NCBI GenBank assembly: GCA_951406725.2
Contig: OX597816.1
Span: 125,860,001 to 125,924,000, forward strand
DNA length: 64,000 nucleotides
Source of the DNA: Octopus vulgaris
Taxonomy: Eukaryota
Direction: 5' to 3'
Positions 7,255-64,000 of the stretch are shown here, piece after piece (the first letter of the stretch is position 1; each line of letters opens with the position of its first letter). Position numbers and translations under genes: made by a program. A model generated the notes under the pieces. The model worked only from the letters and a program-made list of their open reading frames with translations. It was not told where the DNA came from and made no database searches.

Positions 7255-7856
7255 TATATAAAATACAAAATGGGACAAGAACGCAAACATCTAGACAACT
7301 AGGTGATACAAAAAAGGGTCAACAAAACATCCAAATAGACGATAAAAAATACAAGGATGGGTCATTCGAAGCTTTCTATCCTCAGTCAAGAACCGGATCA
7401 TCCTCACAATTTCAACTCATTAATCTTGAGATTGCTACCAATCTGTCCAGCCTCAAGGAAAAACTAAGCTAAGAGCATTAGATTCCTTGGAAGAAAGCAT
7501 CGAATGTATATGAAAACAGGCACGGAAAATCAGACAGTGTTACACACACAAATATAAATACAAAATACAATAAAAATAATTATTATTTCTTTCTTTCTTT
7601 TCGTATACATTCGATGCTTTCTTCCAAGGAATCTAATGCTCTTAGCTTAGTTTATTCCTTGGGGCTTGCCAGATTGGAGCAATCTCAAGATTAATCAGCC
7701 GAAATTGCAAGGATGATCCAGTTCTTGACTGAGGATAGGAAGCTTCGAATGACCCGTCCTTTTTTTTTGTATCGTCCATCTGGATGTTTTGTTGTCCCTT
7801 TTGTATCACCTAGTTGCCCGGATGTTTGCATTCTTGTCCCATTTTGTATTTTATAT
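7255..7856. repeat. Fold-back inverted repeat, ~260-bp arms (7255-7515 / 7598-7856), probable PLE terminus
   Basis: AAATACAAAATGGGACAAGAACGCAAACATC..GAAAGCATCGAATGTATA is the reverse complement of TATACATTCGATGCTTTC..GATGTTTGCATTCTTGTCCCATTTTGTATTT; flanked by (TA)n. Confidence 0.9.
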
Positions 7857-8782: not shown

Positions 8783-8983
8783 ATTACGGAGATGTACTTG
8801 CATAGCAAGTGACCTGATCTGAGATTGTGTGCTGGAACGAAAACAACTGCAGCATGGAAGGTGTTTATAAGCCATTTAAGAAACATACAAAATCCATTAG
8901 ATTCAGTTCAACATGTAAATTTAATTTGTCAAAATATTTTCGTCACTTGAGACTGTGACCTGTTCACTGACAAAATTCAGTGC

Positions 8984-8988
<5 letters not shown>
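8783..8988 (-). mobile_element. Solo 3' terminus (~205 bp) of the GIY-YIG Penelope-like element found at 61236-64000
   Basis: Aligns to 60597-60805 (inverted) and to 61236-61380; contains the GTGAACA hammerhead-like fold at 8925-8974. Confidence 0.8.
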
Positions 8989-17636: not shown

Positions 17637-19266
17637 CAGCAGCGGCCAAAATGTTCAGAACGGCATTGTTTTCATAAGAAAAGTAGATATAATTTTTTAT
17701 CAAAGTTGTTTTATATTCTATAATTTTCACAGACAATAAATACGATATTATTTGTTATTGCCTGAGATTTTGGTGTAATTTGAGAGGATAATACAAAAGT
17801 TATGGATGATTTAGTGATTTACTGCAAAACCCATGGCGGCCAAAATGATCAGAACGGTTGCTTTTACTCCGTGTTTTAGTATATTTAACCGGCGAACTCT
17901 AATGTTTTGAATTTGTTTACGTAATGGTTCGTTTACTAAACATTAGTAAGAATATTTGCAGTGTACTTTGTTAATATAATGCCATTTACTCCATTACCAA
18001 TTCGTCAGCAGGTTATTAAGCTTCGAAGGAAGGATAATTTAAGTATTGGATCTATTGCAAAGATTGTTAACAAGTCAAAAAGTGTTGTACACGGTATTCT
18101 TAAGGTCTATGATGATTGTGGTTCATGTGAAGCAAGAAAGTTTACAGGTAGGCCAAGAAAAACGACCAAGAGAGAAGATCGTGCTATGGTAAAGTTGGTT
18201 AAAAGGGACAGATTTAAAACTGCTGCTGCTGTTTCTCAGAAAATGAGCATTGTATTGAAGAAAACTTTATCTCGAAATACTGTGTCTCGTCGTTTAGTTG
18301 AACATGACCTACAAGCAAGAGCACCTGCAGTGAAGCCACTGATCAGCTCCAAGAATAAAAAGTGTCATCTTACCTATGCAACCGAACATGTGTTGTGGTC
18401 TCAAGAAAAATGGCAAACGGTGCATTTCAGTGATGAATCTAAGTTTATGTTATTTGGCTCAGATGGGAAAAAGTACATTCGTAGAAAAGTAGGTGAAAAA
18501 TTGTCGCCTAAATGCCTTAAGACTAGTGTTAAATTCGGTGGAGGAAGTGTCATGGTTTGGGGGATTGATATTTGGAGATGGTGTGGGCACTTTGGTGTGA
18601 TTACATGGAAAGGTAAATGCAGGAGTTTATAAATAACTTGTAAAAGATCATGTCTTGCCTGTGCTGAGAAATTCAACTAAGCGACCACCCATATTCATGC
18701 AGGACAATGCCCCATGTCACAAGGCTAAGGTGGTCATGAACTTCCTCAAGGCTGAAAAGGTTATTGTTATGGATTGGCCTGCTCAAAGCCCAGATCTCAA
18801 TCCTATTGAAAATGTATAGAATATTCTAGGAGAACGTTTGAAAGCCAGAAATCCTAAAACAACCGAGTAATTATGGAATGCCCTTCAGGAAGAATGGAAT
18901 AAGATCACCCAGCAAGAAATTGAAAATTTAATTTCCTCATGCAGTCGAAGATGTCAGAGTGTGATTGAAGCTAAAGGGCTTCACACTAAATATTAAATAA
19001 TTCCAGTATTCTCTGTCATTTTTGATTATTTTGTTATTTTTTCAACCGTTTTGATCATTTTGGCCGCCATGGGTTTTGCAGTAAATCACTAAATCATCCA
19101 TAACTTTTGTATTATCCTCTCAAATTACACCAAATTCTCAGACAATAACAAGTAATATTGTATTTATTGTCTGTGAAAAGTATAGAATACAAAACTACTT
19201 TGATAAAAACTTATACTTACTTTTCTGACGAAAACAATGCCATTCTGAACATTTTGGCCGCAACTG
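17637..19266 (+). mobile_element. Full-length Tc1 transposon with 224-bp IR/DR terminal inverted repeats and TA target duplication
   Basis: TIRs 17637-17860 and 19043-19266, TA flanks, internal direct repeats GCGGCCAAAATG(T/A)TCAGAACGG at both ends of each TIR. Confidence 0.97.
17979..18996 (+). pseudogene. Tc1 DD34E transposase (frameshift near 18565 plus in-frame stops)
   Basis: Paired-like HTH, GRPRK, FSDESKF, GGGSVMVWG, QDNAPCHKA..WPAQSPDLNPIE (34 residues between D and E), ends GLHTKY*. Confidence 0.95.
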
Positions 19267-21755: not shown

Positions 21756-23160
21756 ATCATCATTGTTTAATGTCCATTTTTCCATGCTGGCATGGGTTGG
21801 ACGGTTTGACTGGGGAGTGGCAAGCCAGGTTCCAATCTGATCTGGCAATGTTTCTACAGCTGGATGCCCTTCCTGATGCCAACCACTCCGAGAGTGTAGT
21901 GTGTGCTTTTTATGTGCAACTGGCATGTGAGCCAGTCAGGTGGTACTGGCATTGGCTACATTCGGAAGGTGCTCTTTAAGTGTCACCGGCACATGAGCCA
22001 GTCAGGGCAGGGAAGCTGGTACTGACCATGTTTGGATGGTGCTTTTTACATGTTACTGGCACAGGGAACCAGTCAGGCGGCTCTCGCAGTGATCCACGCA
22101 TGAATGGTGCTTACTGCATGCCACTAACAATGGTATCGGCCACAACTACAATTTCCATTTGATTGTGATTTGATTTGGTTTTGATTTACTTGACTCAATA
22201 GGTCTCCTCAAGCACAGCATGTCACCCAACAATTCAAAGGTACTTTTTAAATAGGCTGGTTATGCAACACTGATGTAGGCTAAGGCTGTGATCTCACTTC
22301 CCTTGTTGGGTCTTCTCAATCACAGCATATCTCCAGAGGTCTCAGTCTTTCGTCATTGCCTCTGTGAGGCCCAACATTCACAGTCATGCTTGACCACCTC
22401 ATCCCATGTCTTCCTGGGTCTCCCACTTCCACTGTTAGGGAGTGACACTTCTTCACACAGCTCTCCTCATCCATATGTAGCACATGACCATACCAGCACA
22501 GTAGTCTCCCTTGCACTAATCTGATGCTTCTTTATGTCCAAACATTTCTCTCAAGGTGCTTACCCTCTGTCATGTGTACACACTGACATTACACATCCAG
22601 CGGATCATAGTAGCTTCATTTCTTTTGAGCCTACGCATGTCTTCAGCTGCTATGACCCATGTTTCACTGCTGTATAGCATGGCAGTTCGTAAACATGCAT
22701 CGTACAACCTACCTTTCACTCTGAGCAAGAGGCCCTTTGTCACCAGTAGAGGTAGGAGCTTTCTGAACTTTGCCTGGGCTATTCTTATTCTAGTGGCAAT
22801 GCTCTCTGAGCATCCAGCCCCACATCAGAAATGGTCACATAAGTAGAGAAAGCTATCAACTTCTTCTAGTTTCTCCCCCTGGCATGTGATGGAATCAGTT
22901 TTCTGAACATCTGCAGTATTTATAGCCCCTGTGCATCTGCTGCACACAAAAGCTTTCTTCCTGGTTGACCTTCCTTTGATGTTGCTGCACCTCTTATGCA
23001 TTCATAGCTTACACTGGGTACATTTTATATTGTTTCAACCTACACCTTTTCTACAGATTGAGCAAGGTCATCTACATGAAGGGGTTTGTGATGTGTTCAC
23101 CTTCTTACTTACTAGGACTTTGGGTTTTGCAACATTTACTCTCAAGGCCCTTCGATTCTA
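21756..23160 (-). mobile_element. 5'-truncated RTE LINE (RT C-terminus + 3' UTR), disrupted
   Basis: LESKGL.., C4HC3 finger, RIRIAQAKFRKLLPLL, WYGHVLHMDEESCVKKC; homologous to 26636-28010. Confidence 0.9.
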
Positions 23161-23207
23161 AATGTATGTATACACATATACATATATATGTGTAAATATA
23201 TATATGC

Positions 23208-23245
<38 letters not shown>

Positions 23246-23562
23246 ATGTGTATAATGTATGTATGTGTGTGTGTGTGTGTATATATATATTTTTTCTAGG
23301 CCTATATATATAAATATATATACATACATAGATATATATGCATGTATATTTACCTAACGATCACTCAGAAAGTGACCGGACTTTACCAGGAGTAAATCAT
23401 TCATTTTATTATCCATTATACATATATATATATATATATATACATATATACATACATACATATACGCACACACATATACATACATATACACACACACATA
23501 TATATACATACATATACACACACACATATATATACATATATATATATGTCAAAACATATATC

Positions 23563-24540
23563 ATCACCATCATCATCATCATCGTTTAGCGTCCGTTTTC
23601 CATGCTAGCATGGGTTGGACGGTTCTACTGGGGTCTGTGAAGCCAGAAGGCTTCATCAGGCCCAGACAAATCTGGCAGTGTTTCTACGGCTGGATGCCCT
23701 TCCTAACGCCAACCACTCCGTGAGTGTAGTGGGTGCTTTTTACGTGCCACCCGCACTGGCGCCAGACAGAGCTGGCAAACGGCCACGAACGGATGGTGCT
23801 TTTTATGTGCCACCGGCACGAGGGCCAGGCGAGGCTGGCAACGGACACGAAACGGGGCGGTGCTGGCAACGGTCGCGAAACGGAAAGTTCTCTTACATGC
23901 CACCGGCACTGGTAACACATCTGCAATTTCCATTGATCGATTTCGATTCTGATCGTCACTTGCCTCAACGGGTCTTCACAAGCAGAGTTTTGACATGCCA
24001 CCGGCACTGGTAGCACATCCGCAATTTCCATTGATCGATTTCGATTCTGATCCTCACTTGCCTCATCACGTCTTCACAAGTAGAGTTTTGTGTCCCAAGA
24101 AGGGAAGGTATGCATACGTAGGCTGGCTCCATCCCATGTAGAAGGCCACGGGTTATGGACTCACTTGTCCTGCCGGGTCTTCTCGCACACAGCACACTTC
24201 CAGAGGTCTCGGTCTCTAGTCATTTCCTCAGTGAGACCTAAAGTTCGAAGGTCGTGCTTCACCACCTCGTCCCAGGTTTTCCTGGGTCTGCCTCTTCCAC
24301 AGGTTCCCTCAACCGCTAGGGTGTGGCACTTTTTCACACAACTATCTTCATCCATTCTCGCCACATGACCATACCAGCGCAAACGTCTCTCTTGCACACC
24401 ACAACTGATGCTTCTTAGGTCCAGCTTTACTCTCAAGGTACTTACACTCTGCCGAGTGTGAGTACCGGCATTACACATCCAAGCTTTACTTTCAAGGTAC
24501 TTACACTCTGCCGAGTGTGAGTACCGGCATTACACATCCA
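23563..24540 (-). mobile_element. 5'-truncated RTE LINE with a tandem duplication at its 5' junction
   Basis: ORF 24161-24478 RRLRWYGHVARMDEDSCVKKC..GRGRPRKTW; (GAT)n tail; 59-bp unit repeated at 24423 and 24482. Confidence 0.92.
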
Positions 24541-25399: not shown

Positions 25400-25972
25400 T
25401 TTCTCTCTAGTTTCAGCTCAGAGCTGTGACCATGATGATGCACTGTTATTACTAAGAGCCTCCTCTAATATGTAGCACCTGGTGAAGAGTGGAGTTTGAT
25501 ATAGTTACCCTCACTTGCACCTCTCACTGTGAGGTAGGTTCATCTGGAACTCTCAACAGGAGGAGGTCAGCTTTGATTTAAAAATCCCTACATCTACTTT
25601 GTGCAAGTTCCTCAGACTCTTTGGGAGAATATTAAAAAGCTCTGGGCTCTTGAATCCCAGGCTGTTGCAGTAACTGGTCCTGAAGCATGATGGCATTGCT
25701 GGAATCTTTGGCACAATGCAGTGTCGTCCTGTTCTGGCATTGGTGTAGCTTTCAATGCCAAAATTTGGTACAATTCCTGCCAGGGTCTTCCAGATATATA
25801 TTACTGCATAGCTCTCCCGTCTTCTATCCAGGTAGTAGAGTCTTAGCAGTTTCAACCTTTCCCAGGAGCTGAGTTGTAGCAAAGAGACAATGTTCTTTGT
25901 GAAAAATCTCTGGATTGCCTCAAGGTCAGCTGTTAACTTCAGAGTGGTGAGTGACCATAGCTGTGAGCAGTA
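25400..25972 (-). mobile_element. 5'-truncated CR1-type LINE 3' fragment
   Basis: ORF 25553-25882 SWERLKLLRLY..IYIWK..VPNFG is homologous to the C-terminus at 31850-32200; tail CAGCTCTGAGCTGAAAC. Confidence 0.9.
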
Positions 25973-26020
25973 ATATATATACGTATATCTAACTATCTAT
26001 ATATATACGTGTGTGTGTGA

Positions 26021-26444: not shown

Positions 26445-26588
26445 ACATATATACATACATATAGACATATATATATATATATATATACATATATACATAC
26501 ATATAGACATATATATATATATATATATACATATACATACACATATATATATATACATGCATATAGATATATACATACATACATATAG

Positions 26589-26619
<31 letters not shown>

Positions 26620-26635
26620 CATACATATAGACATA

Positions 26636-28010
26636 TATGCCGATGACCTAGCTCTCATAGCAGAATCACTACCGGAACTAGAAGAGAAATTTCGGGTATG
26701 GAAGCAAGGGTTGGAATCAAAGGGCCTTAGAATAAATGTAGCAAAGACCAAAGTATTAGTAAGCAGCAAGAGGTACTCAACACACATCCCCTCGGGTAGG
26801 TGGCCCTGCTCAACCTGTAGGAAAGGTACAGGTAGAAACTCCATAAGATGCACCCAATGTAAGTTATGGACACATAAGAGGTGCAGCAACATTAAAGGGA
26901 AATTAACAGATAAGATAGCTTACATGTGCGGCAGATGCACAGGGACAATAGACACAACAGACACTCAGAAAACAGATTCCATCACACTCCAGGGAGAGAA
27001 ACTAGAAGTAGTTGATAGTTTCCGCTACCTGGGAGACCAAGTTAGTAGCGGAGGTGGATGCACAGAGAGTATCACCACTAGAATACGAATAGCCTGGGCA
27101 AAGTTCAGAAAGCTCCTACCCCTACTGGCAACAAAAGGCCTCTCCCTCAGAGCAAAAGGTAGATTATATGATGCATGTGTGCGAACTGCCATGCTTCACG
27201 GTAATGAAACATGGGCTGTGACTGCAGAAGACATGCGTAGACTTGAAAGAAATGAAGCTAGCATGATCCGCTGGATGTGTAGTGTCAGTGTGCACGCAAA
27301 ACAGAGTGTAAGTATCCTGAGAGAAATGCTGGATATAAGAAGCATCAGATGTGGTGTGCAAGAGCGACGCTTGCGATGGTATGGTCATGTGCTGCGGATG
27401 GATGAAGAGAGATGTGTGAAGAAGTGCCACTCCCAAACAGTTGAAGGTATCAGGGGAGAGGTAGACCTAGGAAGACATGGGATGAGGTGGTCAAGCATGA
27501 CCTCAGAGCATTGGGCCTCACTGAGGCAATGGCGAAGGACCGAGATCTCTGGAGATATGCTGTGACTACAAAGACCCGGGCTGCTTTCTGCAGCAATTCC
27601 ACACCCCCTACCCATTCTAAGTACCCCCCTACCCATTCTAAGTACCCCCCTACCCATTCTAAGTACCCCGGATCCCCAAAGTACCCCGGATCCCCAAAGT
27701 ACCCTGGATCCCCAAAATACCCCGATCCCCAAAGTACCCCGGACCTCGTTGCCCCCGTGCCGCTGACACGTTAAAATGCTCGAATCCGATCGTGACGATG
27801 CCGGACCCTCCGGCCCCTGTGCAGGTGGCACGTAAAAAGCACCCAATCCACTCACGGAGTGGTTGGCGTTAGGAAGGGCATCCAGCCGTAGAAACTCTGC
27901 CAGATTCAGACTGGAGCCTGGAGCGGCCCATGGCTTCCCAGACACGGTCAAACCGTCCAACCCGTGCTAGCGCGGAAAGCGGACGTTAAACGATGATGAT
28001 GATGATGATG
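26636..28010 (+). mobile_element. 5'-truncated RTE LINE starting exactly at YADD
   Basis: [24 protein letters not shown]-like finger..FRYLG..RRLRWYGHV; frameshift near 27455; 21-bp and 18-bp tandem repeats at 27603-27745; (GAT)n tail. Confidence 0.95.
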
Positions 28011-29520: not shown

Positions 29521-32267
29521 TACATCCGTGGGGACCTCACACCCCAGGTCCTTTTGTCATACTCAAACTCGGTGTGTGACACACTAATTGTACACATAAG
29601 GCAACTTGATGTAGTTGTGTGTGCTACATATCGCCCTCCAGATGCCCCAAGTCATATGGGCAAGTTTGAGGACTGCCTTTTAAAAATAGAAGAAGTTCTA
29701 ACCACATTAGAACAACACATAAGTGTACTTCTCATGGGAGACTTCAATCTACCGAATGTCAGATGGCCCGAGGGCCTTTCTCTCCCAGGAATGACAAGAT
29801 GTGAACGAGGACAGGCGAGGTCCCTCCTGAACCTCACCAACACCCTGTACATGGAGCAAGTAATACTCCAACCAACCAGAGCGGGTAACACACTGGATCT
29901 CTGCTTCACAAATAATATGGATCTCATCCATAATGTGAAAGTGACACCGACACTACTCTCGGATCACAACATGGTAGAGCTGACCATGTACGGGCCAAAA
30001 GAGAGCACGGACATGCAGCCTACAAGAAACCCTCAGAATCTTTCCAGCTTGAACTTCAATAAGGCAAACTGGAAACAAATTGAGAAAGAGATCCTCAAAC
30101 AAAACTGGCCTGAATGTCTCTCCTCGCCGGACATCGACAGGATACTTCAACAATTCATGTCTGTAATGCAAGCCATATGCTACAAATGTGTCCCAGAGAG
30201 AAAGGCCACTGTACACAAGAACAAAATCCCCAGAGAGAGAAAAATTTTAATGAGACGGCGCACAAAAATCTCAAATCGCCTAAACAAACAAATTGAAAGC
30301 AGTGAAAAGTCCCGCCTGAAAATAAAACTGTTGGAAATTGAAAATTGTCTGCAACTCTCCCATGAGAAGGAAAGAGCAGACAAAGAAGCCTGCGCTATAG
30401 ACAACATAAAAACTAACCCCAGACCTTTCTACAGGTATGCCAAAGAAACAGCTACGGTGCACTGTAGGATAGGGCCACTCCTTGAAAAGGATGGCACACT
30501 CACAGGAAAACCAATGAGGGTAAGTGAAATACTGAATGAACAATTCAAGAGTGTTTTCACTCCACCCCTTGGGCATTTCCAAATCAGCAATCCAACTGAC
30601 TTTTTACCACTGCAGATATAGAATCAGAGGCGGCGACGTTAAATTACATCGATATAAAAGAAGACGATGTAATAAAGGCTATAGATGAAATGAAAATAGA
30701 CTCAGCTATTGGCCCCGATGGATTCCCGGCAATCCTCCTAAAAGTATGTAAGAGAGTCTTAGCAAGACCACTGCAGTTCCTCTTTCAGAGCTTCCTTGCA
30801 GCTGGGAAACTTCCAAGAAAACTGAAGGAAGGTAAAATATGCCCTATTCATAAAGGAGGTAGCAGAGCGGAGGCCAAGAACTACAGAGCTATCTCTCTGA
30901 CCTCACACATCAGCAAGGTCATGGAACGAATAGTCAGAAGGAAACTAATCACCTTCCTTGAAGAAAATGACTTGCTGCCTGACACCCAACATGGTTTCCG
31001 ACCAGGAAGAAGCTGCTTAACTCAGCTCCTGCAGCACTATGACTGGGTGCTGAAACAACTGCTCAACCACTCAAATGTGGAAGTCATATTTCTCGACTTC
31101 GCAAAGGCCTTCGATAAAGTCGATCATGGAATGATATGTCACAAACTGCGTGATCTTGGCATAGTTGGAAAACTAGGAGAATGGCTTCATGACTTTCTGA
31201 AGAATAGAAGTCAGGTGGTAGTAGCCAATGGGGCCACTTCCATTAGCACGCAAATAGTGAGCGGTGTTCCACAGGGCACTGTTTTGGGACCACTACTGTT
31301 CATAATGGCCCTCTCAGACATGCCCTCAGCCACGCGGAGAGCCACGATCACAAGTTATGCAGATGATACAAAAGTTTCACAGGCAATACAGAACCCTGAA
31401 GACACTAGGCACCTGCAATATGAGCTGGACGAAATATACAAGTGGGCTGAAAAGAATAGCATGCAGTTCAATGCTGAAAAGTTTCAAGCTTTATACTATC
31501 AGCATGCAAAACTGAATGCAATACCCAAGGAATACACTGGACCCGGAGGGATTGCAATCCCAGAGGCACAATCAGTGCGTGACCTGGGTATTCACATGAG
31601 TGATGACGCGACCTTTCATGTACATGTTGCTAAACTGACAGTGAAATGCAGACGGCTGGCTGGATGGATTCTTAGAACCTTTAGAACAAGAGAACAAGAA
31701 ACCATGATGGTCCTCTGGAAGACACTTGTCCTAAGTCACTTTGACTATTGCTCTCAGCTATGGTCACCATCCAGTGTCAAGTTGATCACAGAACTTGAGG
31801 CGATCCAACAAAGCTACACGAAGAAGATAGCCTCTATGCAGAATGTAAGCTACTGGGAAAGACTCAAGAGATTAAAATTATATTCCCTGGAGCGTAGGTG
31901 GGAAAGATATGCCATAATATACATCTGGAAGATCCTGGAGGGAAGTGTCCTGAACTTTGGCATCGAGAGTTACGCAAACGCCAGAACTGGGCGCCACTGC
32001 GTGGTGCCTAGGACTCCAAACTTGCCATCAAGATGTAGGACAAGATTCTGTGATAGCCTGGGCTTCCGAGGCCCACAGCTCTTCAATATCCTCCCGATGA
32101 ACCTGAGAGACCTGCATGGGGTGGATACAGATGTCTTTAAAATGGAGCTGGATCTCTTCCTGTCAGGTGTCCCAGATGAACCAACTTCACGGCAGGAGGG
32201 GCAGATGAGGGCAGCTGCATCGAACTCTCTCATGCACCAAATAGCAGTTGCTAGAAAGCCTCCATGA
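29521..32267 (+). pseudogene. CR1 ORF2 (endonuclease-reverse transcriptase), one frameshift at the T5 run 30601-30605
   Basis: Adding one T (GAC TTT TTT ACC) joins the frame of 29521-30605 to [39 protein letters not shown] and ORF 30690-32267. Confidence 0.9.
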
Positions 32268-40327: not shown

Positions 40328-40850
40328 TGCATTTTCATTTCATTTTCATTTCATTTGAGTCCATGCTCAGGCCAAGTCGAAGACTCCACCCTCAGAGTCT
40401 GGTGTGGTTGCCAGGTTGTATTCTCTGTTTAATCTTGACATGTGTAGGAGCGAGTTTGAGTCAGTTTGTGCTTGTTGTGTATATCCTGGGAGATGGGGTT
40501 CATCTCTAATGGTGCTTAAGTATCTATCCAGCTGCACTTTGAATGATTCCACACTGCATCCTGATAGATTTCTGACATGTACCGGAATGGAGTTGAATAG
40601 TTGTGCTCCTCGAACCAACAGACTTGATTCTCGCAGGGTTTTTGCTGCCTGGCCAGCCTTTTTGTTGATTGGTGGTAGCTGGCAGCGTCTTCCGTGGCGC
40701 AGTGAGTGGTAGGTTTTGATACCAAAGTTTGGCACCTTTTGCTCTATCATTTTCCAAATGTATATAATTCGGTATCGCTCAAATCTTCTTTCTATTGAGT
40801 ACATCCTCAAGGTTTTGAGTCTTTGCCAATTATTTGATGCAATGGTCATA
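40328..40850 (-). mobile_element. 3' fragment of a second CR1-type LINE family
   Basis: ORF 40367-40849 WQRLKTLRMYSIERRFERYRIIYIWK..VPNFG..GAQLFNSIP; (GAAAT)n-type tail. Confidence 0.88.
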
Positions 40851-41064
40851 TTGCTTTAATACCTGACATCCTGTGACCTATTTAATTTTATTAACCTTCC
40901 TTCAAGCTCTGCAGACAATACCAGGCTGACAGGTTATCTCTACTTAAGTACCTAATTCAGTTATGGGGACGTAAACACACCAGCATCACATGCAAAGCGA
41001 TGTTCGGGGAGAGGGGGGGACAAACACAGACACAGAAACACACACACACATATATATATATATA

Positions 41065-42186: not shown

Positions 42187-42618
42187 TTTATTTGTACACA
42201 TCAGAATATATATATATATGAATACAGACATGTATATAAATATTTTCACATACACACACATATATATACACATATATTTTGTATCTTTTCATTTGTCTTT
42301 CTCGCTTTACGTTCTGGCATTTGCCGATATTTCTCGGGAACAATTTTTCTTTATGGTTAGATCATATGGGGTCTACCTTTAGTGGAGTAGGAATCCACCT
42401 AGTGGTCATTCATCTTATACGTATGTAATATAATTTCCTGAATCTTCAGGTTTTTTTCAATGTGCTAGGCCACTAGTTTCAATTGATATTGATTTAATTA
42501 ATATCAATTTTTACCCATATTACTTAAATTTTACATATATATATATATACACACACATATATGTATACACATATATACATACATAGATACATATATATAT
42601 ATTCATATATATATATAT

Positions 42619-43517
42619 ATGTGTAAGCTCGCAAGAAATGAAGCCAGTATGCTCCGTTGGATGTGTAATGTCAGTGTTCATAACCGACAGAGTGTAAGTG
42701 CCTTGAGAGAAAAGTTGGACCTAAGAAGCATCAGATGTGGTGTGCAAGAGAGGCATCTACGCTGGTATGGACACGTAGTAAGAATGGATGAAGATAGTTG
42801 TGTGAAAAAGTGCCACACCCTAGTGGTTGAGGGAACCTGTGGAAGAGGTAGACCCAGGAAAGCCTGGGACGAGGTGGTGAAGAACGACCTTCGCACTTTA
42901 GGTCTTACTGAGGAAATGACCAGAGACCGAGACCTTTGGAAGTATGCTGTGCACGAGAAGACCCGGCAGGACACGTGAGGCCATAACCCATGGCCCCTAC
43001 CTGGGACGTAGTCAGTCCACCTGTGCATACCTTCCTTCTTGGGACACTTGTGAAGACCTGTTGAGGCAAGTGAAAATCAAAATCAAACCAAATCAAAATC
43101 AATGAACATCAATGAAATTTGTATCTTTGTGGTACCAGTGCCGGTGGCACATAAGACCATCCGAACGTGGCCGTAGCCAGTACCACATCGACTGGCCTCC
43201 GTGCTGTGGGCACGTAACAAACACCATCCGATTGTGGCCGTTCGCCAGCCTCGTCTGGCACCTGTGTCGGTGGCACATAAAAAAAAACACCATCCAAGCG
43301 TGGCCGTTCGCCAGCCTCGTCTGGCACCTGTGTCGGTGGCACATAAAATCACCCACTACACACTCGGAGTGGTTGGCGTTAGGAAGGTCATCCAGCTGTA
43401 GAAACACTGCCAGATCTGACTGGCCTGGTGCAGCCTTCGGGCTTCCCAGACCCCAGTTGAACCGTCCAACCCATGCTAGCATGGAAAGCGGACGTTAAAC
43501 GATGATGATGATGATGA
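42619..43517 (+). mobile_element. 5'-truncated RTE LINE
   Basis: ORF 42619-42978 LRWMC..LRWYGHV..GRGRPRKAW; 3' UTR with ~66-bp tandem unit; (GAT)n tail. Confidence 0.92.
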
Positions 43518-60596: not shown

Positions 60597-60805
60597 GATG
60601 CAGCACGGATTTTTGTCAGTGAACAGGTCGCGGTCTTAAAGTGGCAAAAATAATTTGACAAATTAAGCTTACATGTTGAAGTGAATTGAACAGCTTTTAT
60701 GTGTTTCTTAAATGGCTTACAAACACTTTCCATGCTGCAATTGGTTTCGTTTCAGCACACGATCTCAGATGAAATCACTTGCAATGCATGTACATCTCTG
60801 TAATA
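60597..60805 (+). mobile_element. Solo 3' terminus of the GIY-YIG PLE (older copy, ribozyme core damaged)
   Basis: Reverse complement of 8783-8988; GTGAACA fold at 60612-60662 with GAAA mutated to AAAA. Confidence 0.8.
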
Positions 60806-61316
60806 TGTATATATATATACATATACATACATATGTATACACATATATATCCATATATATATACACATATATATATCCAAATATATAAATATATATATAT
60901 ATACATATATATAAATATATATATATATACATATATAAATATATATATATATACATATATATAAATATATATATATACATATATATAAATATATATATAC
61001 ATATATATAAATATATATATACATATATATATGTATATACATATCCATACATATGTATATACATACATATATATATGTATATACATATCCATACATATGT
61101 ATATACATATCCATATATATGTATATACATATACATACATATAAATATACATATATATATATATATACATGTACACATATATATCCATATATATACATAT
61201 ATATATCTAAATATATATATATATATACACATAAACAATTGCAGCGTGGGAGGTGTTTATAAGCCATTTAAGAAACACACAAAAGCCGTTCGATTCACTC
61301 CAACATTTAAGTTTAA

Positions 61317-61366
61317 TTTGTCAAAATATTTTCGTCGCTAAAATCCGCGACCTGTTCACTGACAAA
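61317..61366 (-). ncRNA. Putative minimal type I hammerhead ribozyme with G3:C8-swapped core
   Basis: UUUGUCA-GUGAACA-G-GUCGC-GGAUUUUA-GCGAC-GAA-A-AUAU-U-U-UGACAAA: 7-bp stem I, 5-bp stem II, palindromic AAUAUU stem III. Confidence 0.65.
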
Positions 61367-62316
61367 GTCCGTGCTGCATCTAAGAAAGTAACAGTTAGTT
61401 CGTCATATATATGTATGTACGTATGTATGTGTGTATGTATGCATACATGTGTGTATGTATGTACGTATTCATGTCCGCACATACGCCTGTGTATGCATGT
61501 ATGTATGTATGTATGTATATATGTATGTGTGTGTATAAGCACGCACATACACTCTATAAAACATAAAGTTATAAACCTGTAGGGATGGATGGATGTAGAG
61601 TGACCACTCATCACAACGCTATCAAATTTCAACTCCCTACGGCCGAGGCTAGAAAGTGAATTTATGACGCTTGCTCACAAGAACTATACCCTAAAATCTA
61701 TTATCAGATTTTTATCTCTATATCACAGAACTAATGTTTTACTATTGTTCGTATGTATGTATGTATGTGCGTATGTATGTATGTATGTATGTATGTATGT
61801 ATGTATGTACATACGTACGCATGTGCGTATGTATGTATACGCGCCCGTATGCATGTGCCCATGTATGTGTGTGTGTACATGTACGTGCGTATGTACGTGT
61901 GTATGCCCATACGTAGGTATGTATGTATGTTTGTATTCATGTGCTACGTATGTATGTGAGTGTCTAGGAGAATGGGCAGATGTGTCCGTGAGAGTGTGTA
62001 CATGTGTATGTGTATGTGAACGTATGTCCGTGTACTGGCATGTGTCCGTCCAAGTTGTGTACATGACTGTTACTTAGCTGAAGGTTGTATACATATTTAC
62101 ATATATGTTTGTATAGACGCACACACATATATATATATGTGTGTGGGTGTGTGTTTGTTCCTCTCATCGTCGTCTAACCGTGAATGGGTACAACGCCTAG
62201 GTGCGACTGTTCGTATCAAACAACGTCTGCTCATACCGTTGTATATAACTGCACATACGCATTGCAACCTGTATGTAAGGACTACAGGTGAAAGGGAGAG
62301 AGAGAGAGAGGGGTGG

Positions 62317-62703
62317 TTATAGAATAGTCCTTCTGAATGGGATCTGGATGTTATTCCATTCGGACTTTCGGTTGAGAGTAGGTTTGTATTCTTGTATACA
62401 AACAGCTTCTGTGACCTGTCTCAACATTGCATCGGTGGGATGTGTAGATAGGATGTTCAACTTAAGCTCCCTAAGGATCCCTTGTGGCAGTCTACAGCAT
62501 GTTGGTAGAAGATGGAGTTTGGCTTCCTTTCAATGTAGTTGTCCAGGTGTTCTTTGAACCTATCATTGATGCTTCTAGAGGTCTCACCTATGTATGACTC
62601 CGGGTTAGCCGCGCAAGCTCCCTCCTGGCACTTAATCTGGTATACAGTGCCCTTGGTTTTACAATTTACGTGTGGATTTGTCGAACACACTGCACAATTA
62701 CTC
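62317..62703 (-). pseudogene. Inverted copy of the GIY-YIG segment with a 1-nt deletion
   Basis: GCTCCCTAAG (~62466-62475) versus GCTCCCCTAAG in the other arm causes a frameshift. Confidence 0.85.
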
Positions 62704-63155
62704 AGACAGGTAGGACTATCAAATCGGCATTATGCAGATCATATCCATTTGATAGAATCACCTGTCAGAGTAATTGTGCAGTGTGTTCGACAAATCCACA
62801 CGTAAATTGTAAAACCAAGGGCACTGTATACCAGATTAAGTGCCAGGAGGGAGCTTGCGCGGCTAACCCGGAGTCATACATAGGTGAGACCTCTAGAAGC
62901 ATCAATGATAGGTTCAAAGAACACCTGGACAACTACATTGAAAGGAAGCCAAACTCCATCTTCTACCAACATGCTGTAGACTGCCACAAGGGATCCTTAG
63001 GGGAGCTTAAGTTGAACATCCTATCTACACATCCCACCGATGCAATGTTGAGACAGGTCACAGAAGCTGTTTGTATACAAGAATACAAACCTACTCTCAA
63101 CCGAAAGTCCGAATGGAATAACATCCAGATCCCATTCAGAAGGACTATTCTATAA
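62703..63155 (+). CDS. 5'-truncated PLE ORF: Cys-rich linker plus GIY-YIG endonuclease
   Basis: TGRTIKSALCRSYPF..CQSNCAVC..CKTKGTVYQIKC..SYIGETSRSINDRFKEH..HAVDCH..RQVTEAVCIQEYKPTLNRKSEW. Confidence 0.9.
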   Translation, partial: QTGRTIKSALCRSYPFDRITCQSNCAVCSTNPHVNCKTKGTVYQIKCQEGACAANPESYIGETSRSINDRFKEHLDNYIERKPNSIFYQHAVDCHKGSLGELKLNILSTHPTDAMLRQVTEAVCIQEYKPTLNRKSEWNNIQIPFRRTIL

Positions 63156-64000
63156 CCACCCCTCTCTCTCTCTCTCCCTTTCACCTGTAGTCCTTACATA
63201 CAGGTTGCAATGCGTATGTGCAGTTATATACAACGGTATGAGCAGACGTTGTTTGATACGAACAGTCGCACCTAGGCGTTGTACCCATTCACGGTTAGAC
63301 GACGATGAGAGGAACAAACACACACCCACACACATATATATATATGTGTGTGCGTCTATACAAACATATATGTAAATATGTATACAACCTTCAGCTAAGT
63401 AACAGTCATGTACACAACTTGGACGGACACATGCCAGTACACGGACATACGTTCACATACACATACACATGTACACATGCATACGGGCGCGTATACATAC
63501 ATACGCACATGCGTACGTATGTACATACATACATACATACATACATACATACATACATACATACATACATACATACATACGCACATACATACATACATAC
63601 GAACAATAGTAAAACATTAGTTCTGTGATATAGAGATAAAAATCTGATAATAGATTTTAGGGTATAGTTCTTGTGAGCAAGCATCATAAATTCACTTTCT
63701 AGCCTCGGCCGTAGGGAGTTGAAATTTGATAGCGTTGTGATGAGTGGTCACTCTACATCCATCCATCGCTACAGGTTTATAACTTTATGTTTTATAGAGT
63801 GTATGTGCGTGCTTATACACACACATACATATATACATACATACATACATACATGCATACACAGGCGTATGTGCGGACATGAATACGTACATACATACAC
63901 ACATGTATGCATACATACACACATACATACGTACATACATATATATGACGAACTAACTGTTACTTTCTTAGATGCAGCACGGACTTTGTCAGTGAACAGG

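Follow-up and report, generated by a model that had tools for sequence, protein, structure and literature searches.

A putative kilobase-scale palindrome folded at a hairpin in the coding sequence of a young Penelope-like element from Octopus vulgaris

RESULTS

A palindrome built around the 3′ end of a Penelope-like element

The window is the whole stretch of Octopus vulgaris DNA that was analysed, with a length of 64,000 nt. Its right end holds two arms that are reverse complements of each other, separated by a 64-nt centre that is not symmetric (Table 1). The outer coordinate of the left arm merely mirrors the end of the window, so that the visible arm length is a lower bound. The differences between the arms are few. 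In particular, there are two substitutions in 1,212 aligned nt (0.17%, 95% CI 0.02-0.6%), at the paired positions 61668/63683, where the change is of the CpG type, and 61583/63768; a 1-nt indel within a G run (62471/63000); a TACA run whose length differs by 20 nt between the arms; and a 141-nt piece that is present in one arm only. The first-pass annotation, made from the letters alone, had described the arms, the 141-bp indel with its TGTG microhomology, the 1-nt indel, the few substitutions, and the centre as an imperfect stem with a 4-nt internal mismatch and a 22-nt loop; all of this was confirmed, and the TACA difference, which it had missed, was added.

The 141-nt difference most likely arose when the right arm lost the piece by a deletion at the microhomology. 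In one contig of an independent sequencing run (X4), the end of the 141-nt piece protrudes as a loose end at 63455, and the longer form is therefore present in another sample. Further, the differences between the arms, including the CpG-type change, fall on both arms. They are compatible with the ageing of an inserted structure, and they fit equally well with two alleles laid onto a folded assembly.

Table 1. Features of the palindrome, in window coordinates.
Feature	Position	Strand	Remarks
Truncated copy of ~200-nt dispersed host repeat	61233-61380	+	arm enters the repeat; cut end at 61233 against a TA tract
Left arm, inverted copy	61351-62703	-	visible part only
141-nt piece, left arm only	61858-61998	-	4-nt TGTG/CACA microhomology
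Asymmetric centre, native PLE linker DNA with imperfect hairpin	62704-62767	+	7 bp + 4 x 4 mismatch + 9 bp + 22-nt loop
3′ end of PLE ORF, 149 aa + stop	62706-63155	+	linker with zinc-finger-like motif, then GIY-YIG endonuclease; RT part absent
Right arm, sense PLE	62768-64000	+	lacks the 141-nt piece; continuous with the centre, hence the template or 'original' arm
PLE 3′ UTR/pLTR region	63156-63325	+	hammerhead-like, non-canonical motif; 3′ boundary probably near 63310-63390
Right arm, non-PLE part	63326-64000	+	CA/TA/TACA microsatellites, older dispersed repeat, window-unique stretch 63595-63800, first 30 nt of a ~200-nt repeat

The centre opens into the 3′ end of the open reading frame of a Penelope-like element (PLE). 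A GIY-YIG domain lies in frame with the centre (Pfam PF01541, E 4e-5) and carries the pattern VY.I.C...C...YIG, whose two internal cysteines are typical of PLE endonucleases; Cys46, His73 and His94 are invariant in all eight aligned sequences. Residues 20-27 of the fragment form a CX3CxxC motif ahead of this C-terminal endonuclease, with the stop codon at 63155. A CX2-5CxxC zinc-finger-like linker before a C-terminal endonuclease is a defining trait of the Neptune and Nematis PLEs (PMC8557442). The motifs thus point to an EN+ PLE of Neptune/Nematis type, whose reverse transcriptase (RT) is missing through 5′ truncation. Searched against 1.84 billion representatives, the fragment has 1,564 relatives at E<=0.001, the best of them at about 50% identity. 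Upstream of the endonuclease, a YVDD motif could be read by eye in two homologues (P0002 and L018); Pfam RT matches were found in none of the six long homologues. No second copy of the PLE was found elsewhere in the window, and an exact 24-nt pattern of the family had no match in metagenome, viral or prokaryote genome contigs.

Downstream of the stop codon, a hammerhead-like motif occupies approximately 63230-63282 (+), mirrored at approximately 62190-62242, at the place where relatives show a canonical hammerhead core. The window lacks the canonical core pattern, which is present in 7 of 72 related PLE loci. No hammerhead ribozyme was matched in Rfam at the gathering score, nor was there one among the 150 listed of 155 weak matches, and the folding of 63230-63282 is not in excess (z 0.57). 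Position 63267 is the sole exception to an absence of major variants among those listed for this region in the family, and the non-canonical core may be the family's own variant rather than a product of decay. Rfam matches to microRNAs, all below the gathering score, were rejected as due to the palindrome and the microsatellites.

Other repeats populate the window. Two 219-nt inverted repeats that are 94% alike (17642-17860 and 19043-19261) surround a transposase-like ORF at 17940-18632 (-), and the element at 17642-19261 is presumably Tc1/mariner-like, as judged from its motifs. LINE-like ORFs were recognized by eye at 30600-32267 (+) and 26567-27565 (+), with 555 and 332 codons from stop to stop, and LINE-related fragments lie at 22300-24500, 25500-26000, 40360-40860 and 42600-43150. 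An inverted pair of 250 nt, 90% alike and about 80 nt apart, is found at 7268-7516 and 7598-7844.

The fold point lies at a hairpin in native coding sequence

The hairpin of the centre consists of an outer stem of 7 bp (62705-62711/62760-62766) and an inner stem of 9 bp (62716-62724/62747-62755), and an A-A mismatch (62704/62767) sits directly at the junction. Folded alone as DNA, the 64 nt reach -12.4 kcal/mol (z = -4.7), which none of 500 shuffled sequences equalled. Moreover, when the 557 candidate cDNA 3′ ends of the surviving element are ordered by the strength of their 3′-terminal hairpin, 62704 holds rank 1, and 62704-62706 together hold ranks 1-3. In three other transposon ORFs of the window, terminal hairpins of equal or greater strength occur at 0 of 1,664, 19 of 3,164 and 0 of 1,224 positions. 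The stem at the fold has 16 matches in 21, compared with a chance median of 9 and a 95th percentile of 11; one of 3,000 random draws gave 16. The hairpin's rank favours a folding directed by the hairpin itself, and it is silent on whether the folding took place in a cell or in a sequencing library.

Two kinds of comparison place the junction. Among homologues, 106 of 153 could be anchored, and the residues that follow the junction are widely kept in them (G in 96, K in 81, L in 83, S in 80 and P in 101 of the 106). Two positions ahead of the T, 91 of the 106 have E, and none has the residue of the window. Similarity between the window and the homologue motif, E-[RK]-[SAT]-G..K..L..S.PF, starts at the T/G codons. 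Among contigs of public sequencing runs, three diverged members of the family, one each from runs X1, X4 and X5, start aligning exactly at 62704; beyond this position two of them continue with 63 and 29 nt that do not resemble the left arm, and the third with 1 nt. The contigs that start at 62704 and the conservation among homologues together set the junction at 62703|62704 (+/-1). The annotation's reading of 62704-62767 as native PLE linker, in frame with the GIY-YIG domain, is borne out by both lines of evidence, and the 64-nt centre is native PLE coding DNA. The centre passes without a break into the sense arm, so the folded 3′ end belonged to the antisense strand, which has the polarity of cDNA.

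The arms continue past the element into non-PLE DNA

The arms extend well beyond the PLE. The letters of the window within the ORF (62870, 62891 and 63026) are carried at a depth of about 2,600 in X4, and family-level depth continues through 63292. At 63396, however, the window letters are carried by 0 of a depth of 20,573 in X4 and, by subtraction, by about 22 of 9,421 in X1 and about 76 of 62,481 in X5. Two relatives (L035 and L036) end about 90 nt past the hammerhead core, which, given the motif at 63230-63282, puts the end of the element near 63325, at the start of the CA/TA microsatellite. With the 3′ end so placed, about 55% of the visible arm would be host flank. The description of the locus as a 'Penelope palindrome' thus goes too far. 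Of the canonical inverted insertion unit of PLEs, one feature is present, in that an inverted 5′-truncated copy adjoins the PLE 5′ end; another is absent, since the inverted copy overshoots the probable pLTR/3′ end and takes in 0.6 kb or more of low-copy DNA and older repeats. A canonical unit would also have a target-site duplication and, optionally, a tail of 30-40 bp at its right end, which lies outside the window. This extension into host DNA is the sole unexplained feature of the palindrome.

The truncated repeat at the far left makes 61233 a candidate for the outer end of the left arm, from which the mirror position predicts a right end at 64118. Other copies of the ~200-nt repeat lie at 8785-8986 (+) and 60600-60802 (-); they are about 85% alike, with TA microsatellites at both ends and no terminal inverted repeats. 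The repeat may represent a SINE or another family's solo pLTR. A reading of 60600-61380 as a MITE with terminal inverted repeats was rejected, because the interval consists of two of the three copies of the dispersed repeat, one of them truncated.

The family is abundant and young in public sequencing runs

The public data compared were contigs of runs X1, X4 and X5 and raw reads of run X20; X4 and X5 were read whole, and depth is used as a rough guide to copy number only. In X4, two contigs have no difference from the window, at depths of 2,436 and 2,633, and the diverged contigs listed comprise five at depths of 10-31 and one at 281. The PLE family is abundant and young in the contigs of the three runs. 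The loop and the right half of the stem show no differences from the young subfamily from 62738 on. Synonymous third-position variants at 62762, which break the outer stem, are carried by 14 contigs of X1, 6 of X4 and 6 of X5.

No read or contig spanning the junction was seen in any of the four runs, and no joint with a change of strand was found among those listed. On the left overhang, X4 and X5 have a depth of 0 over 62655-62683, and hence no junction contig was seen there. X1 has a depth of 7,530 over the same interval; since the average falls to 6,730 in the following bin, no record of that depth can extend over the junction, and the signal is read as a family contig placed at the mirror position, beneath which a junction contig of low depth may lie. 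Contig builders drop rare joins between high-depth repeat nodes, which makes the missing junction contig weak evidence: a junction common to a large share of copies should show at high depth, whereas one confined to a single copy or a minority may be dropped. Separately, the raw reads of X20 (3% read, about 1.9 Gb) are uninformative for the junction. The run has the same species label as the best-matching one, yet none of its reads fell on the high-copy PLE, which suggests either a different lineage under the same label or an effect of filtering.

Inversion junctions in related elements do not share the fold site

The site homologous to the window's fold could be placed in 39 of the 72 related loci, and none of the 39 has a comparable hairpin there. 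The energies of the homologous 64 nt range from -1.2 to -6.6 kcal/mol, as against -12.4 kcal/mol in the window, and none reached -10. Inverted 5′ pieces occur in 11 of the 72 loci, according to our own reading of the alignments. Junction geometry was examined in nine of these (L038 and L058 were left out): five have the fold-back geometry, another forms a tight palindrome, and the remaining three extend upstream in the manner of twin priming. The five fold-back loci have spacers of 248-940 nt, and their best stems have 8-13 matches in 21 (chance median 9; window 16), counts that are approximate because three of the five junctions contain 7-34 unaligned bases. The inverted copies in L021 and L067 end at the 3′ end of the element. 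The loci from metagenome contigs with inverted 5′ pieces of both fold-back and upstream-reaching geometry (L005, at 2379-2473; L021, L030, L046, L050, L051, L052, L067, L070, L038 and L058) form a ready set for a study of PLE junctions.

Five inversions could be mapped on the reference of one related family, where they start at 2513, 2570, 2767, 2878 and 3211. The site homologous to the window's fold is at 2999, and none of the five starts lies within 100 nt of it. The first-pass annotation had suggested checking whether inversion breakpoints cluster at this or similar hairpins; in this one family they are scattered over five places. It had also proposed that the element encodes a preferred fold-back site, a proposal that finds no support in these inversions, in the 39 loci, in the variants at 62762, or in X4 and X5, where no junction contig was seen. 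The hairpin is opportunistic, not a conserved signal.

DISCUSSION

A proposed snap-back of the cDNA during insertion

The reading that we prefer, at a probability of roughly 0.55, is that a young, 5′-truncated PLE of Neptune/Nematis type underwent an opportunistic snap-back of its cDNA during insertion, with copying that continued into the flank. A high-copy PLE would have inserted by target-primed reverse transcription beside a CA/TA microsatellite, and cDNA synthesis would have halted at about 62704, within the linker that joins RT to endonuclease. The free 3′ end of the cDNA would then have annealed to the imperfect inverted repeat of 7 + 9 bp, 64 nt away, and primed synthesis along itself, giving a head-to-head inverted copy with a single native copy of the loop between the arms. 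Copying would have passed the 3′ end of the element and taken in some 0.67 kb of flank or more, on account of a read-through transcript that carried host DNA or of synthesis that proceeded past the priming site into the target DNA. Each arm would later have gained a few changes. Because of the mismatch at 62704/62767, priming would have to start from a mismatched end or else rely on a further native match at 62703.

The coincidence of the fold with the 5′ truncation of a young copy supports this reading. The annotation had likewise proposed a snap-back on a native hairpin, and that part is sustained by the first rank among 557 ends and by the cDNA polarity, but its encoded preference is not. 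Against a snap-back, no read or contig was seen across the junction, and the inverted arm runs at least 0.6 kb past the probable PLE 3′ end, unlike the arms of L021 and L067. Fold-backs of L1 into target flank also count against it, being rare and short in PMC10191854 (4 cases among about 1,200 insertions, with lengths of 52-220 bp). On the other hand, comparable arrangements have been described. PLE insertions often have an adjacent inverted 5′-truncated copy (PMC8557442); for rotifer PLEs, palindromic junctions were put down to self-priming, and a PLE family was described that had captured 0.9-1.5 kb spacers of host DNA (PMC3846280); and cDNA snap-back junctions were observed for R2 (PMC11371274). 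The later steps of PLE integration are described in PMC11167929 as 'yet to be validated'.

Other routes to the same structure

The same structure could have arisen without reverse transcription, if a break fell in a longer inserted PLE and the 3′ end annealed on the same inverted repeat and was extended. Such a course, which we hold to be unlikely, would account for host DNA in both arms with no extra steps and fits the hairpin's rank equally well. Inverted duplications are known to form through fold-back priming at breaks (PMC3907307, PMC10622511), and the self-annealing of hairpins occurs at ends made by L1 (PMC11702581). The break, however, would have had to hit a short young PLE copy by chance, the cDNA-like polarity would be a one-in-two coincidence, and PLE 5′ ends often carry inversions in any case (11 of 72 loci). 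Their frequency is also the main reason for favouring the putative structure as real over an equally unlikely artefact, in which a chimera folded back at the hairpin, during amplification or in a long-read library, and its arms were polished from two alleles. That fold would lie at the PLE 5′ end, where inversions are biologically common, and a single folded molecule cannot yield a 141-nt indel between its arms. An artefact would agree with the four runs in which no junction was seen, an argument weakened by the loss of rare joins in contig building; with the right arm, which leaves the window without a visible end; and with the arm differences, all of which could be allelic and the 1-nt one of which sits in a homopolymer. 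Among nanopore genomic reads, about 0.55-0.6% are fold-backs; PacBio HiFi data have virtually none (PMC12870357), which would count against an artefact if the window came from the latter platform. Overall, the palindrome is a real-looking, well-preserved case of a known PLE arrangement, with a putative junction in vivo.

Two further readings concern the primer and the hairpin. In the model of Arkhipova, proposed for head-to-head PLE inversions (PMC3846280), an antisense transcript started in host DNA downstream would end near 62704, fold, and prime reverse transcription on itself. The antisense RNA hairpin is stable (-25.0 kcal/mol), the same geometry is predicted, and flank in both arms is explained; in vitro, however, a PLE protein starts synthesis on its RNA from a nick in the target DNA (PMC11167929), and we consider this route improbable. 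Even less probable is that the hairpin is a preferred fold-back site encoded by the element and used by many copies of the family. The fold does lie at the top-ranked hairpin, whose loop and right stem half match the young subfamily, but the window holds a single event, and the stem-breaking variants, the related loci with their weaker folds, the scattered inversion starts and the missing junction contig all speak against such use. A narrower version is doubtful: snap-back in the young family would recur at the linker hairpin in a minority of cases, and synthesis running past the priming site into the target would create heritable, kilobase-sized inverted duplications of host DNA whose fold point could be predicted.

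Significance

Self-priming was put forward in 2013, on structural grounds, as the mechanism of inverted 5′ copies of PLEs (PMC3846280). The window copy shows no new mechanism or encoded signal. Its value is that of a clean single example, in which stem, loop and mismatched junction are preserved in the near-consensus sequence of a young family, and it could serve as a template for a snap-back assay in vitro. If the duplication of flank is true and tied to insertion, it adds PLEs to the sources of small inverted duplications in host genomes. In the literature searched, which covered few subscription journals and makes this a weak negative, no paper was found that maps PLE inversion junctions to hairpins in coding regions.

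Comparison with known systems

The window copy most closely concerns the canonical insertion of EN+ PLEs such as Neptune and Nematis (PMC8557442, PMC3846280), with which it shares the C-terminal GIY-YIG domain, the zinc finger in the linker, the 5′ truncation, the head-to-head inverted copy, the palindromic junction and the microsatellite surroundings. It differs in that the fold lies in the linker of the ORF rather than in a pLTR palindrome, and in that the arm continues at least 0.6 kb past the probable end of the element. Similar to the snap-back of R2 (PMC11371274), the 3′ end of the cDNA would prime on an internal position of the cDNA and give an antisense segment at the 5′ junction; the R2 cases, however, are engineered insertions in cultured cells by an RT of another clade, whereas the window holds a genomic PLE whose history is deduced from its structure.

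As in the fold-backs of L1 (PMC11702581, PMC10191854), a DNA end made by a retrotransposon would anneal to itself and give an inverted duplication that includes host DNA. The L1 cases are somatic, and are either duplications of 52-220 bp on the upstream side of the target or large chromosome rearrangements; in contrast, the window duplicates at least 0.67 kb of downstream flank, and its fold lies inside the element. Finally, L1 twin priming (PMC11702581) likewise leaves an inverted 5′ segment at a retrotransposon insertion, but it inverts an upstream part of the RNA with little overlap, whereas the inverted arm of the window duplicates the whole downstream piece, and an origin by L1-type twin priming was rejected on this geometry.
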